Shown here: positions 4,593 through 58,338 of the stretch, piece after piece
Position numbering within the stretch: the first letter of the stretch is position 1
Layout of the letters: every line of letters begins with the position of its first letter
DNA from: a virus
Length of the DNA: 64,000 nt
Virus genome (UHGV): UHGV-0351052
Strand: one strand, 5' to 3'
Program-made: the position numbers and the translations under genes
The notes under the pieces: model-generated
Seen by the model: the letters and a program-made list of their open reading frames with translations, nothing else
The model's database searches: none
What the model was told of the DNA's origin: nothing

Positions 4593-4793
4593 ATGGTACA
4601 AAAATTAATGGCACTTGTTAATGCCATAAAAGGTAATAAGAAACGTATAGCTTTTACTATTTCTGCTATGATAGGAATTTTACTTTGGAATTTTGTTTTA
4701 TCGCCAGTTGCTATTGCTCATGGCGTTAGTATTCCAGTAGTTACTCTTGATACATTCGTAGATTTAGCATTTGCTTTAGTTGGGTTAATTTAA
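4593..4793 (+). CDS. hypothetical small membrane protein (66 aa) on plus strand
   Basis: Intergenic plus-strand ORF with strong AGGAGG Shine-Dalgarno 7 nt upstream of ATG; hydrophobic; late-promoter-like gATAAATA about 20 nt upstream. Confidence 0.5.
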   Translation: MVQKLMALVNAIKGNKKRIAFTISAMIGILLWNFVLSPVAIAHGVSIPVVTLDTFVDLAFALVGLI

Positions 4794-5818
4794 ATCTTAG
4801 CATATTTAGATAGCCGCATTTTAGCCATCAACCCCTGGGCAATATTATTTTTCATATATTCCATAATTTGTTCAGGGGTTGCACCTTCCTTTCTAATCAT
4901 ATCATTAACATCTTTTGATTTCCAGGGAGATTTATCCCAAAACATAACCCTTTCTCCTGCATCAACTAATTTAGTCATTCGTTTAATAGTGTCAGGGTGA
5001 CGAGGTTCATTATCTAAGACCCACACTCGTCTATCTTTAAATGGAACAACTTCTAGGTCTAATTGACCACCCGTAATAGCTATACCATTTTCAATAAAAA
5101 GTGAATCTATAGGTCCTTCTAGAACATATACATCACCATCTTTAACTCGTTCGACTCCATAGATTTTTGTTGCCTCAGGATAAGCTTTGATGGTGATATA
5201 TTTTTGAGGAGCATCTTTCTTTAATGCACGTCCTTGAAAAGACTCAGCTTTTCCATTAGCATTATAAATTGGAATAACAAGACGAGGCTCAGAAATTTCC
5301 TTTTTGTATGTTCCCGGTGCTATGCTATTAACCAATTTAGGCCATTCGGTTGTAAACCAAAGATATTTCCATTTATCCTTTGGAATACAACGAGCTTTTA
5401 CGTATTTTATAATTGGATGGTCTTCCGCCAGTTTATCTAATCTAACACATGACGGAAGAGATTTAATTATTTTCTTCTCAGGTTGTTTAGGAAGTTCTTT
5501 AGGTTTTTCTACTGGACGACTTTTACCTTTTTCTTTTCTTATTTCAAAGATATACTCACGATATAAATCAGGTTCAAACTCCTTTAGATATATTCCGATT
5601 GGTGCATGATAGTTACAGTTATAACAATGAATATTTCCTTCATTATTATCACCATAATACCATCCACGGGCTTTATTTTGGTCGGTTTTTGAATCTCCAC
5701 AAACAGGACATCTAAACCGTAATTTAAAAGTTGAACTATTATTTACTTGTGTGAATTTAGGTAAATGAGCTAATGCACGGTATGCGAACTCATTATCAAT
5801 CCAAGGTATTGATGACAT
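4790..5818 (-). CDS. 61: DNA primase gp61
   Basis: 342 aa; zinc-ribbon CPVCGDS near N-terminus; matches T4 gp61 from memory. Confidence 0.9.
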   Translation of the reverse strand: MSSIPWIDNEFAYRALAHLPKFTQVNNSSTFKLRFRCPVCGDSKTDQNKARGWYYGDNNEGNIHCYNCNYHAPIGIYLKEFEPDLYREYIFEIRKEKGKSRPVEKPKELPKQPEKKIIKSLPSCVRLDKLAEDHPIIKYVKARCIPKDKWKYLWFTTEWPKLVNSIAPGTYKKEISEPRLVIPIYNANGKAESFQGRALKKDAPQKYITIKAYPEATKIYGVERVKDGDVYVLEGPIDSLFIENGIAITGGQLDLEVVPFKDRRVWVLDNEPRHPDTIKRMTKLVDAGERVMFWDKSPWKSKDVNDMIRKEGATPEQIMEYMKNNIAQGLMAKMRLSKYAKI

Positions 5819-5820
5819 TT

Positions 5821-5985
5821 TTACTCTTCTTTTTCTTTAGATTCCTCTTTTTTCTTTTTAGGAATCTGTTCAGGACCTTTATTTACTACAGCACCTGATG
5901 TTGTTCCAGTAGAGATATTTTCAGGATTACCACCTGAATCTCCAGCAACCATATCTTCTTTGATAAATTCTTTATATGTTTTCAT
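5821..5985 (-). CDS. 61.1-like small protein (54 aa) with capsid-targeting-like N-terminus MKTYKEFI
   Basis: Hand-translated MKTYKEFIKEDMVAGDSGGNPENISTGTTSGAVVNKGPEQIPKKKKEESKEKEE; not in ORF track (<60 aa). Confidence 0.45.
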   Translation of the reverse strand: MKTYKEFIKEDMVAGDSGGNPENISTGTTSGAVVNKGPEQIPKKKKEESKEKEE

Positions 5986-5986
5986 A

Positions 5987-6613
5987 TTAACCTCTATTCA
6001 TAAAAGCATTAAAAATTTGGTCATCAATAGAAACATTTACTTTAGACTGTTTTTCAGATGGCAATTCATATCCACATATTACAATTTTATGATCAATATC
6101 AAAATACACAGAAGCAATATGATTAATGATGTTTTCAGTAAAGTCTAAATCAACATCAATATCTTTTTGACCACAGCCCAAAGGATAAATAATGCGAGTA
6201 ATTCGATTATCTTTAACAAATATTCCACCGACATACTCTGTGCTGCGTTTAAAGTCTACACGCCGACGAAATGAAAAATATTCAGGCTCTTTATGAGCTC
6301 GGCTCATAGGGCACAACGAATAACTAGAATAAGAGATGTCAAATCCTACGCCTTCAATATGAACTAAATTGTCATGATTAAACCAATTATAATCATATGC
6401 CAAGTCCATTAGATTGTCATATGTAAAAGGCACCGGATTAACATCATTGGTCACAAGCATATAATTAGCAACTGCTATAATTTCATTATTTTTAACGAAT
6501 ACAAACCGTGATTGATGCGAATGACCTGGACCTGCGTTTTCACGATTAATGATATAACACTGGGCACCTTTATATTTGTACGTGTCTTTACACTTGTGCA
6601 TTTGATAAAGCAT
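5987..6613 (-). CDS. 61.2-like hypothetical protein (208 aa)
   Basis: ORF track; position between 61 and sp. Confidence 0.5.
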   Translation of the reverse strand: MLYQMHKCKDTYKYKGAQCYIINRENAGPGHSHQSRFVFVKNNEIIAVANYMLVTNDVNPVPFTYDNLMDLAYDYNWFNHDNLVHIEGVGFDISYSSYSLCPMSRAHKEPEYFSFRRRVDFKRSTEYVGGIFVKDNRITRIIYPLGCGQKDIDVDLDFTENIINHIASVYFDIDHKIVICGYELPSEKQSKVNVSIDDQIFNAFMNRG

Positions 6614-6906
6614 TATTCACCTACCACTTCAGCGATGATATTTTTATTATTAAAGTTTTTATCACAATACAGAACATAATTATACTGCATTACACCACCA
6701 GACTTAAGCTGTTTTTGCACTTCAGCTTTCATTTCAGGACGATCACGCTCAACTATATTCATAATATCTGCTTCAATTTGAGTTTCAACCTCAGTCTGAT
6801 CCGCAGTCATAGACCATTCGCACAAATCTTTATCATAACCTGCCATAGCAGGCTGAGCAGCACAAGAAGCTAAAGCAAAAATTGTAGCAAAGATAAATTT
6901 TTTCAT
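6613..6906 (-). CDS. sp: Spackle periplasmic protein (superinfection exclusion; inhibitor of gp5 lysozyme)
   Basis: Internal Met start gives 97 aa with signal peptide MKKFIFATIFALASCAAQPAMA; matches T4 Sp from memory. Confidence 0.7.
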   Translation of the reverse strand: MKKFIFATIFALASCAAQPAMAGYDKDLCEWSMTADQTEVETQIEADIMNIVERDRPEMKAEVQKQLKSGGVMQYNYVLYCDKNFNNKNIIAEVVGE

Positions 6907-27859: not shown

Positions 27860-28171
27860 TTATTCTTTAAGTTCGAGTTTTGTTCCACGAGAAATAATTC
27901 CTTGATAAGCCCAGTATGGCGGGTTAACAGAATCCTCACCAGAGTTTTCTTCAGGAAAATAAACCTGGATAACGAAGCCGGATTCATCAAAGGTGAAATA
28001 AGTAGTAGGCAGTTCACCTAACAAATCGGCACGAGCGTTGATTTCTTCGAGGTCTTGTTCACGTCCAGCCCAGAAGCTTGGGTTCAGACTACATTCATAG
28101 AAATAATAGTCATTACCGAACATATCAAAACCATTCCAACTCTCTACTACATACCGCTCAAAACTAATCAT
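27860..28171 (-). CDS. hypothetical protein (103 aa)
   Basis: ORF track. Confidence 0.5.
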   Translation of the reverse strand: MISFERYVVESWNGFDMFGNDYYFYECSLNPSFWAGREQDLEEINARADLLGELPTTYFTFDESGFVIQVYFPEENSGEDSVNPPYWAYQGIISRGTKLELKE

Positions 28172-48764: not shown

Positions 48765-49145
48765 TCAATTAGAAAATAAATTTATCCAAGATTGTTCTTT
48801 AATTAAAAATGGCTCAGAATCATATGCCATTAAACTCTGTGTGATTAGTCCTTTAAAAGGCCCATCAATAAATTCCATGGTAAAATATGGAATTTTATTC
48901 ATTAGCCGTGCATTAGGAGCAGTGCACAAAACTCTGCATCCTTTGAATACACCTTTTTGTAATTTGTATTGCTTGGGATAAAATTCGCTCAAAATGTTAT
49001 TTTTTGCCAAAATTTCAAAATGATTCACCAATTTATTTTTAATAGTTTTTGGCGAAAAATAAAGATATTCGAAAAGCTGAGTGTCTGTCATCATTGCATT
49101 CCGATTACGAAAAACTGTGGACGAGTAATACCACCAATGCAACAT
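48765..49145 (-). CDS. hypothetical protein (126 aa), possibly 3-prime part of a split gene
   Basis: ORF track; overlaps next ORF by 55 nt in another frame. Confidence 0.4.
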
Positions 49146-49678
49146 TTAATATTACAGCAGCAGTGTACAGTGTCAATATGGACACTATAAATCTTATCCA
49201 TATCAGGAGATTTGACAGGCTCATCAATTATATACAAAATTCGCGAAAGCGATAAACCTCTGAACTTGCTTCCTTTATTACCAATAAAACTGCGCACAGA
49301 ATCAGTAAATAAACGAAAACGTATATCATCATTAGAATAACGCGAAAATTCCTTTTTAATATTATCTGCGGAAATTTTAGCGTAAGCTGAAGTATTAGAA
49401 AGAACAATAACTGTTCCACCGTCATACAACCAATTAGCGGCAAAATTAGTTACTGCAGTTGATTTACCGGATTGACGTCCACCATCTATACGAAGTGTGC
49501 AATACTGTTTAAGTAAGTCTTCAAATGGTGGGATATAATCGTTTTTACAAATTTCTTCTACTCTAGCATCAGAATGGTGTGTAAAAGCATTCATCAGGGA
49601 TAGATAAGGACCAGTTAAAAATGTTCTCATTTTGTTCTCTCTAGGTTTGGGCCATTCCATGGCGCATGAATTGTCCAT
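49091..49678 (-). CDS. P-loop NTPase-like protein with terminase-like Walker A (GGRQSGKS) and Walker B (YIIDE); possibly truncated
   Basis: Motifs read from translation; odd Cys-rich C-terminal tail suggests frame disruption. Confidence 0.45.
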   Translation of the reverse strand: MDNSCAMEWPKPRENKMRTFLTGPYLSLMNAFTHHSDARVEEICKNDYIPPFEDLLKQYCTLRIDGGRQSGKSTAVTNFAANWLYDGGTVIVLSNTSAYAKISADNIKKEFSRYSNDDIRFRLFTDSVRSFIGNKGSKFRGLSLSRILYIIDEPVKSPDMDKIYSVHIDTVHCCCNIKCCIGGITRPQFFVIGMQ

Positions 49679-49807: not shown

Positions 49808-50383
49808 TTAATTACCACGGGCCGCATTAGCAACGGCGTAAGCATACTGAACATTAGCGTCCTTAAACGTACCTTTAGAGGTATCTATTTCTGCCTTAAA
49901 GCCGCCTTTAGCCATAACATCGGCAAATTCTTTACGGAAAGCCATTGCATCAAGACCTTTCCATGATGATTTATGCTTGGCAAATTCAAGACCAGCGTAG
50001 TTGACAGCCTTAGCTAATTTATTATCAATAACCCATTTACCAGCTTTAGGCACAAACACCGGGCCTTTCTGTTTGGAGAATAGTTTTAAATTCCAGCGAC
50101 GAAGGTCACCGTCAGCTTTAACAAAAGCTGCGTCCAAGTTACTAGCAACAACATCTTGAATATGGCCAAATTTAAGCCCATCAACTTCAATATTTAGATC
50201 GGTACGCCAGCGAAGTCCTTCCCAAGCGAAGCCTTTAAAGTCGGAAGCCTTTGTAGCTAAGTACCGTTCAATAGGAGCTGTTTTAGGGTCAAAGCCGTTT
50301 CCTCGGTAAGTCCACTCATCTTTATTAATGCCTTTGGCCTTTTCCACAGAAGCTTCGGCGATAAATTCTTTATACGTTTTCAT
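49808..50383 (-). CDS. ipIII: internal protein III (capsid-packaged, CTS leader MKTYKEFIAEA)
   Basis: 191 aa with canonical capsid targeting sequence; matches T4 IPIII. Confidence 0.8.
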   Translation of the reverse strand: MKTYKEFIAEASVEKAKGINKDEWTYRGNGFDPKTAPIERYLATKASDFKGFAWEGLRWRTDLNIEVDGLKFGHIQDVVASNLDAAFVKADGDLRRWNLKLFSKQKGPVFVPKAGKWVIDNKLAKAVNYAGLEFAKHKSSWKGLDAMAFRKEFADVMAKGGFKAEIDTSKGTFKDANVQYAYAVANAARGN

Positions 50384-58080: not shown

Positions 58081-58338
58081 TTATTTTAAATCTTCTAATC
58101 GTTTCTTCATCTTAGAACCATTTTTAGCAATTTCTCCTGCATCGGAGCATAATGCTAAAAGCGCTTTAACTTTAGTTTGGTCTCCTTTAAAAGATGAAGG
58201 ATCGACTGCAGCAGCAAGTTCTTTAATACGAGAGAAAAGACGTTCAGCTTCAGCTAAAGCCATTCCAAGCTTTACTTCCATACCGTGGGAAGATTCAGTA
58301 ATAGTAGTTTTTGTAGCAAACTCTTTGAAAGTTTTCAT
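58081..58338 (-). CDS. IP-locus internal protein with capsid targeting sequence (MKTFKEFATK), distinct from T4 IPI
   Basis: 85-aa ORF immediately upstream of 57B (the ipI position in T4); N-terminal leader resembles CTS of ipIII; body differs from T4 IPI as remembered. Confidence 0.55.
   Translation of the reverse strand: MKTFKEFATKTTITESSHGMEVKLGMALAEAERLFSRIKELAAAVDPSSFKGDQTKVKALLALCSDAGEIAKNGSKMKKRLEDLK

Follow-up and report, generated by a model that had tools for sequence, protein, structure and literature searches.

Gene 61.1 of a T4-like phage (Tequatrovirus) encodes a small protein with a capsid-targeting-like leader and a homolog of the N-arm of the capsid protein gp23

Introduction

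Head assembly of phage T4 is among the best-studied morphogenetic pathways, and the list of prohead components and of substrates of the prohead protease gp21 is treated as complete. This protease cuts after Glu in the motif L/I-X-E, with few other determinants (PMC9026906). Among its substrates are the internal proteins IPI, IPII, and IPIII, which carry the capsid-targeting sequence (CTS) at their N-terminus. Packaging requires no more than the first 10 residues of IPIII, of which 4 and 7 are important for targeting and 8 and 10 for processing (Mullaney and Black 1996, summarised in PMC9026906). The 10-residue CTS alone packages foreign proteins, plasmid-expressed ones included (PMC9026906). 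Cleavage by gp21 at L/I-X-E inside the prohead also generates small products from gp67, gp68, and gp22 (PMC9026906).

The major capsid protein gp23 loses its 65 N-terminal residues to gp21, i.e. it is cut after Glu65 (PMC9546572). According to cryo-EM, residues 66-105 are disordered in the unexpanded head, point inward, and probably touch the scaffolding core (PMC9546572). In the expanded head, the same residues become an extended N-arm and N-fist, through which contacts within and between capsomers are made and which contribute to the Soc site. The mutations A66D, A94V, and G97S, which affect capsid length, also map to this segment (PMC9546572). Fragments of the scaffold can leave the prohead through capsomer openings of 14-17 Å (PMC9546572). 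Head and ejection proteins of the giant phages phiKZ, 201phi2-1, and SPN3US carry long pro-regions (roughly 100 residues or more), which a gp21-like protease removes at x-x-Glu (PMC5694885).

Here, we analyzed a small gene of the replication cluster, 61.1, in a 64,000-nucleotide stretch of the UHGV virus genome UHGV-0351052 (the window). It is a segment of a T4-like (Tequatrovirus) genome, with approximately 98.3-98.8% identity to T4 and close relatives around 61.1.

Results

Gene 61.1 and its neighbors

The ORF of 61.1 comprises 54 codons plus stop (5821..5985, minus strand) and is present as an ATG ORF in the ORF list. Its program-made translation, MKTYKEFIKEDMVAGDSGGNPENISTGTTSGAVVNKGPEQIPKKKKEESKEKEE, is identical to a hand translation given in an earlier note on this sequence. 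The same note described the ORF as unannotated, which is incorrect: the T4 reference contains its ortholog as 61.1 (T4p034, 'gp61.1 hypothetical protein'), and the gene is annotated in most relatives as well. The ORF is a real, annotated, and uncharacterised T4 gene. At this locus the window and T4 are 98% identical at the nucleotide level, and the T4 allele of the protein differs by two residues (MKTFKEF at the start; I26). The short-form family phrog_1823 matches residues 1-54 of gp61.1 (E = 7e-34), which makes the protein a member of this family, while the long-form family phrog_2086 matches it through its C-terminal positions 109-154 (E = 2.6e-16). All PHROGs related to 61.1 belong to the function-unknown category.

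The gene is tightly packed between its neighbors. Downstream, only 2 nt separate its stop codon from the ATG of gene 61, encoding the DNA primase (4790..5818, minus strand), a neighbor that is kept in all genera examined. Upstream lies gene 61.2 (5987..6613, minus strand), whose product is the anti-DarT factor AdfA (Pfam PF23813, E = 1.5e-136) and whose stop codon is 1 nt away from the 61.1 ATG. Direct reading of the sequence gave a GAGG Shine-Dalgarno element within the 3′ end of 61.2 (5991..5994, minus strand), 5 nt from the 61.1 start codon. Compared with its orthologs, 61.1 showed dN/dS values of 0.15-0.4 wherever dS was unsaturated (about 0.25-0.34 versus T4 and RB69), indicating selection on the gp61.1 peptide. 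In T-even phages, an accessory block of 61.2/adfA, sp, 61.4, and dmd is located between genes 41 and 61.1; this block is absent from distant genera.

The leader resembles the capsid-targeting sequence of internal proteins

Codons 1-10 (5956..5985, minus strand) encode a CTS-like leader, MKTYKEFIKE. The earlier note had pointed out that its first eight residues equal those of the ipIII product, and we confirmed this against the ipIII gene of the window (49808..50383, minus strand; leader MKTYKEFIAE): residues 1-8 are identical, as are nine of the first ten. At the nucleotide level, 23 of the first 24 positions of the two genes agree, while their upstream regions are unrelated. The start of the T4 allele, MKTFKEF, corresponds to the first seven residues of T4 IPI. 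All residues reported to be decisive for targeting (Y4, F7) and for processing (I8, E10) are present in gp61.1.

In all six frames of the 64-kb window, only three ORFs start with MKT[YF].EF, namely 61.1, ipIII, and the internal protein gene at the ipI locus. A looser pattern (aromatic-4/aromatic-7/hydrophobic-8/Glu-10) was scored among the 659 Met starts followed by at least 40 aa before a stop; both MKTYKEFI ORFs and one other fitted it, where about 0.1 matches were expected by our estimate. The resemblance between the leaders of 61.1 and ipIII is far beyond chance. The additional match is a 103-aa ORF (27860-28171, minus strand) that begins MISFERYVVE and is otherwise unlike a CTS.

The earlier note had named a lack of conservation of the MKTYKEFI leader in orthologs as evidence against its proposal. 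Such conservation was found for the short forms of the protein (51-62 aa), which occur in Tequatrovirus, Jiaodavirus and, with a variant leader, Krischvirus; it does not extend to most T4-like genera, which have an N-terminal domain of about 105 aa in its place. The short forms of all three genera have CTS-like N-termini (MKTYKEFIKE, MKTYKEFVTE, and MIGFKQFVEE...LKE), and the starts recorded among them were MKTYKEFIKE, MKTYKEFVTE, MKSFKEVMNE, or MIGFKQFVEE-NKLKE. The short form of the Krischvirus GEC-3S starts with MIGFKQFVEE.

The core is a homolog of the N-terminus of mature gp23

Codons 11-38 (DMVAGDSGGNPENISTGTTSGAVVNKGP; 5872..5955, minus strand) encode a homolog of gp23 residues 66-93, with which mature gp23* begins. 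In BLASTP, residues 2-38 of gp61.1 aligned without gaps to gp23 57-93, with 43% identity over 37 residues (E = 1e-8). When all PDB sequences were searched, gp23 was the top match both for the single gp61.1 sequence (E = 0.0085) and for the 61.1 family profile, which matched gp23 57-101 (E = 3.9e-7). A comparison of the long-form family with gp23 by hhalign resulted in a probability of 95.5% over gp23 53-97. The motif common to both proteins is GD.G....NIA.G.T.GAV...GP. Residues 10-41 are the part of gp61.1 whose conservation, in tblastn and protein searches, extends as far as the phages of Acinetobacter, Aeromonas, and Vibrio. The portion behind the leader, which had been set aside in the earlier note as low-complexity, thus contains in its Gly/Ser-rich part a gp23 N-arm homolog, which is also the most conserved part across genera.

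A copy of gene 23 at the nucleotide level was considered and rejected, as only 56 of 114 nucleotides are identical; this value suggests that the relationship is either old or one at the protein level. We also asked whether the 61.1 motif co-varies with the gp23 of the same phage (six pairs). The permutation result was not significant for the BLOSUM score (406/720) and marginal for identity (35/720), and we claim no concerted evolution.

Similarity to gp23 is confined to gp23 53-97. Neither gp61.1 nor its long forms had a Pfam match even at E = 10; the Gp23 model (PF07068) starts at gp23 residue 88. AlphaFold2 (AF2) models the gp23-like motif as disordered. As it has no HK97-fold body, gp61.1 cannot be a capsid subunit. 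Several database records, e.g. those of BW-1, vB_Eco_F25, and SF2-1, as well as UniRef names, label 61.1 orthologs of 51-165 aa as 'major capsid protein' or 'major capsid domain-containing protein'. Given the limited common segment and the missing HK97-fold body, these names are misleading.

A predicted gp21 site in register with the gp23 cleavage site

Codons 8-10 (5956..5964, minus strand) encode I-K-E, which fits L/I-X-E and represents a predicted gp21 site with the cut after E10. In the alignment with gp23, Glu10 falls on Glu65, which puts I-K-E10|D11 in register with L-T-E65|A66. When the cleavage sites are aligned in this way, the CTS positions 4, 7, 8, and 10 coincide with gp23 F59, F62, L63, and E65, so that the CTS may resemble the end of the gp23 propeptide. 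Over the whole leader, three of ten residues are identical between gp61.1 and gp23 56-65, compared with nine of ten for the leaders of the internal proteins.

We scored this site register across the family. P3 was L, I, M, or V in 134 of 134 members, and P1 was Glu in 128 of 134. A further 17 representatives of 50%-identity clusters displayed the same site pattern, with mostly Ala or Ser at P1′. For comparison, P1′ is Ala at the gp23, IPII, and IPIII sites and Ser at the gp24 site, whereas it is Asp in the window allele of gp61.1. The suggestion in the earlier note that I-K-E is a plausible gp21 site gains support from the register with gp23 and from the hydrophobic-x-Glu pattern kept in the family. 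One further candidate, 'LLREST' as a gp24-like site in P0236, was rejected because LLRE/LLKE belongs to a conserved helix of the family. Sites of the type [LIVM]xE[AS] following the N-domain were only about 2-fold enriched.

The charged tail varies through an indel in an A-run

Codons 39-54 (EQIPKKKKEESKEKEE; 5824..5871, minus strand) encode a charged tail, which is Lys-rich and then acidic in the window allele. It includes an A-run, AAAAAGAAAAAAGAGG (5844..5859, minus strand), in which a 1-nt indel distinguishes T4-type from T6-type tails. Deleting one base from the A-run gives exactly the 62-aa T6 allele (P0002). The basic tail of the T6 allele, KKKKRNLKKKKSKNVINTLD, extends into the first codons of gene 61 and is similar to SKKRKRIKVNINKL, the tail of the RB69 type, for which reason the acidic EESKEKEE tail looks derived. 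Slippage on the A-run could in principle yield both forms of the tail. In the window allele, the predicted mature peptide (residues 11-54) has a pI of 5.0, with 7 K+R versus 9 D+E, and is therefore not a basic protein; the T6 allele and the orthologs of other genera, which have basic tails, are basic (pI 8.3-10.3).

A widespread family with a conserved position next to the primase gene

The 61.1 motif was found in about 1,490 phage records, and the gp23 segment in about 1,500. In 512 phage records the 61.1 region was present at high identity, and the recovered protein clusters (90% identity) were full-length ORFs. Orthologs occur across the non-cyanophage T4-like phages. Synteny was checked in the window, RB69, RB16, Aeromonas 65, Vibrio PVA23, GEC-3S, Morganella MP1, LilPanda, and one metagenomic contig. 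In all genera examined, 61.1 directly precedes the primase gene 61 and shares its strand, with one or two small ORFs in between in RB16 and GEC-3S. Distant genera have the gene order 41-61.1-61, with 61.1 directly between the other two, and one distant member of the family is situated among RNR and RNase H genes.

In most genera the protein is a long form of about 120-165 aa (155 aa in RB69/JM10, 163 in RB16, 148 in Morganella MP1, 121-146 in Aeromonas 65, and 159 in the KVP40-like PVA23), in which a helical N-domain of about 105 aa is followed by the C-terminal gp23-like motif and a basic tail. A profile of the long form detected 1,855 clusters among 1.84 billion representatives; most of them match the N-domain only and have varied C-terminal parts. 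The AF2 model of the long form reached a mean pLDDT of 64, and a search of this fold against the PDB yielded no matches. Among its matches in BFVD, RB69ORF032c was the only named one, and two others were much longer proteins (672 and 913 aa). No relatives of the N-domain were detected in Pfam or PDB. Two candidate relationships of the N-domain were rejected: (i) AdfA/61.2, with an hhalign probability of 0.1%; and (ii) gp22, where a 16-residue match to the C-terminus (E = 0.14) is not kept in the gp22 of RB16, MP1, and LilPanda and was treated as chance.

In two metagenomic cluster representatives, P0144 and P0153, a long 61.1 is fused in frame to a module of about 100 aa beginning MVDFKQFVESLE|ADK. 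The arrangement looks like a polyprotein built for processing by the prohead protease. P0144 (251 aa; 6001-6756 of a metagenomic T4-like contig) occupies the canonical locus between gp41-like and primase-like genes. Its C-terminal module had no tblastn match in the phage collection. The order on this contig is 43-, uvsX-, and 41-like genes, P0144, a 345-aa ORF of primase size, and a Dam-type methyltransferase gene; P0144 and the adjoining 345-aa ORF had no Pfam match.

In RB69, the reference sequence (NC_004928, 17317-17783) splits the 155-aa long form into RB69ORF032c and '61.1', while its close relative JM10 encodes it as one 155-aa ORF (P0018). The split reflects either a probable frameshift in the reference sequence or a real disruption.

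Expression and phenotype in published T4 data sets

T4 time-course omics data classify the 61.1 transcript as 'early'. The same holds for the transcripts of ipII and ipIII, whose proteins are 'late', so that early transcription of 61.1 does not exclude packaging. The promoter motif of late genes, TATAAATA, was absent from the coding strand within 3.5 kb upstream of 61.1; a dedicated late promoter may not be strictly needed, given that the CTS alone packages plasmid-expressed proteins. The T4 time-course infection proteome did not contain gp61.1 (Class_P = NA), and a T4 virion mass-spectrometry study, supplements included, makes no mention of 61.1. At 4.6 kDa and with a single usable tryptic peptide, such a product easily escapes detection. 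In a CRISPRi-ART screen, knockdown of 61.1 was scored 'Not Fit', i.e. without fitness defect in the laboratory host, and its function was listed as unknown. With this neutral knockdown, no phenotype backs any role for 61.1. We found no paper discussing gp61.1, and the gene is absent from the accessible reviews on the T4 head and on comparative genomics. Hence the gene is known, while its function and its CTS- and gp23-like features appear to be undescribed in the accessible literature.

Discussion

A candidate substrate of the prohead protease

We consider it possible, with a probability of roughly 40%, that gp61.1 is taken into the prohead and cleaved by gp21, with the release of 44 residues that mimic the N-arm of gp23. 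MKTYKEFIKE would act as a CTS, as in IPI, IPII, and IPIII, and would bring the protein into the scaffolding core during prohead assembly. There, gp21 would cut after Glu10 (I-K-E|D). In the released 44-residue peptide, the first 28 residues would copy the start of mature gp23*, and the peptide would probably occupy, or compete for, the site of the gp23 N-terminus on the core or the shell. In the long forms, the helical N-domain of about 105 aa may serve as the pro-region, and short CTS-like leaders would have replaced it in T4-type phages. Cleavage after E10 would give rise to a semi-tryptic peptide (DMVAGDSGGNPENISTGTTSGAVVNK; DMVAGDSGGNPENIS(T/I)GTTSGAVVNK) whose N-terminus, at D11, is non-tryptic.

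The analysis shows sequence relationships, site register, conservation, synteny, and purifying selection, whereas packaging, cleavage, and a role for the mature peptide are inferred. Five observations speak for prohead cargo: (i) the identity of the leader with a CTS; (ii) the register with a proven cleavage site; (iii) the family-wide invariance of the site; (iv) CTS-like leaders that repeatedly took the place of the N-domain; and (v) the polyprotein-like fusions. The location of gp23 66-105 inside the unexpanded head, beside the scaffold (PMC9546572), counts for it as well. Against it stand the non-detection of the protein, an expression that is early only, the lack of a late-promoter motif, Asp at P1′, the acidic mature peptide, which could escape from the prohead, the weakness of [LI]-x-E as a motif on its own, and the neutral knockdown, as well as the position of the gene in a conserved 41-61.1-61 replication cluster, away from the head genes.

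The likeness to the internal proteins comprises the MKT[YF][KQ]EF start, aromatic-4, Phe-7, Ile-8, and Glu-10, and an L/I-X-E that ends at residue 10. Internal proteins are also dispensable in laboratory hosts, and the transcripts of ipII and ipIII are early like that of 61.1. On the other hand, the mature part of gp61.1 would have only 44 aa, is acidic in the window allele whereas the internal proteins are basic, and is homologous to gp23 and not to any internal protein. Moreover, 61.1 lies in the replication cluster without a late-promoter motif nearby, its product is a predicted cargo, and its orthologs in most genera have the 105-aa N-domain and not a CTS. With gp23, the protein has in common 43% identity over 37 ungapped residues and an aligned cleavage-site Glu; it differs in having no HK97-fold body. 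Like gp67, gp68, and gp22, it is predicted to give a small product of gp21 cleavage, but those precursors are abundant, needed for assembly, and encoded in the head cluster 20-67-68-21-22-23. No similarity of gp61.1 to gp67, gp68, or gp22 was found (hhalign probability versus gp22 below 1%). The processing that we infer for the long forms has an analogy in the pro-regions of the giant phages mentioned above, to whose propeptides we found no sequence or fold relationship.

The earlier note envisaged that the peptide, if packaged, would be injected with the DNA. By analogy with scaffold fragments, an acidic 44-residue peptide could escape through the capsomer openings of 14-17 Å. Injection is therefore doubtful for the window allele, as its mature peptide is both acidic (pI 5.0) and small enough to leave the prohead.

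A more general version of the prohead reading seems unlikely at present. It holds that gp61.1 represents an unrecognised class of prohead-protease substrates, namely free-standing copies of the maturation junction and N-arm of the major capsid protein, equipped with an exchangeable pro-region (a 10-residue CTS in T4-type phages or, elsewhere, a helical domain of about 105 aa) and acting on head assembly or expansion through the sites of the gp23 N-arm. If so, the N-domain with its approximately 1,855 clusters could be a general module for cargo loading or core docking.

Alternative explanations

Alternatively, though we regard this as improbable, gp61.1 could remain in the cytoplasm as an early, unprocessed decoy or competitor for a factor that recognises the gp23 junction or N-arm, e.g. 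a host defence that senses the capsid protein, or else a chaperone, gp22, or gp21. The leader would then simply be part of the copied junction. The coincidence of the CTS residues with gp23 F59, F62, L63, and E65 fits this explanation, since it allows gp23 56-93 to be seen as the template of the entire ORF; the leader is, however, much nearer to those of the internal proteins (9/10) than to gp23 56-65 (3/10). The early transcript is consistent with a cytoplasmic mimic, as is the fact that 61.1, like most counter-defence genes, is dispensable in the laboratory host. In T-even phages, the gene adjoins the counter-defence genes adfA, 61.4, and dmd, plus spackle, but the argument from this neighborhood holds for the T-evens only, because distant genera possess the 41-61.1-61 core without counter-defence genes. 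With a presence in about 1,500 phage records, the family is also unlike typical counter-defence genes, which are variable. The Gol peptide, which we take to be approximately gp23 residues 93-122, would lie just downstream of the copied region, and this counts against a mimic of that kind. Host systems that sense gp23 are known (Lit/Gol; PMC3014915).

Slightly less probable still is a role within the replication module, be it as a DNA- or primosome-associated protein working with gp41 and gp61 or through translational coupling onto the primase gene. Such a role would account for the position between 41 and 61 that is kept in every genus examined, for the 2-nt distance to the gene 61 ATG or, in the T6 allele, the overlap with gene 61, and for the distant member among RNR and RNase H genes; basic Lys/Arg tails, present in most genera, could bind DNA. 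It would leave unexplained, however, the homology to gp23, the invariant hydrophobic-x-Glu site, and the CTS-like leaders. Purifying selection on the amino acids argues against pure coupling, and no similarity to known replication proteins was found in Pfam or PDB.

That the 54-aa form is a functionless leftover of an ancestral gene of about 155 aa, truncated and altered by a frameshift, would agree with the missing N-domain, the 1-nt indel that distinguishes its tail from that of the T6 allele, the undetected protein, and the neutral knockdown, but is very improbable in view of the 512 phage records at high identity with full-length 90%-identity clusters, a dN/dS of about 0.25-0.34 versus T4 and RB69, a good Shine-Dalgarno element, and a CTS-like N-terminus kept by the short forms of three genera.

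Implications

Should gp61.1 indeed be prohead cargo, a mimic of the N-terminus of the capsid protein encoded in the replication cluster would be a new player in the core-shell interaction or in expansion, and a capsid-targeting leader would be in use outside the ip loci. A function would also be assigned to a family carried by about 1,500 sequenced T4-like phages, and likewise to a widespread, uncharacterised domain. In practical terms, the analysis corrects the misleading 'major capsid protein' annotations, and gp61.1 would provide CTS-based protein packaging with a second natural example.

The ip loci of the window also differ from those of T4. Downstream of ipIII, ipII is absent; where T4 has ipII and denV, there is a 195-aa ORF (49091-49678, minus strand) with a P-loop-like GGRQSGKST. 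The ipI locus (58081-58338, minus strand) encodes a different internal head protein of 85 aa (phrog_3499, E = 1.2e-49), whose leader is MKTFKEFATKTTITE, compared with MKTFKEFTSTTTPVSTITE in T4 IPI.
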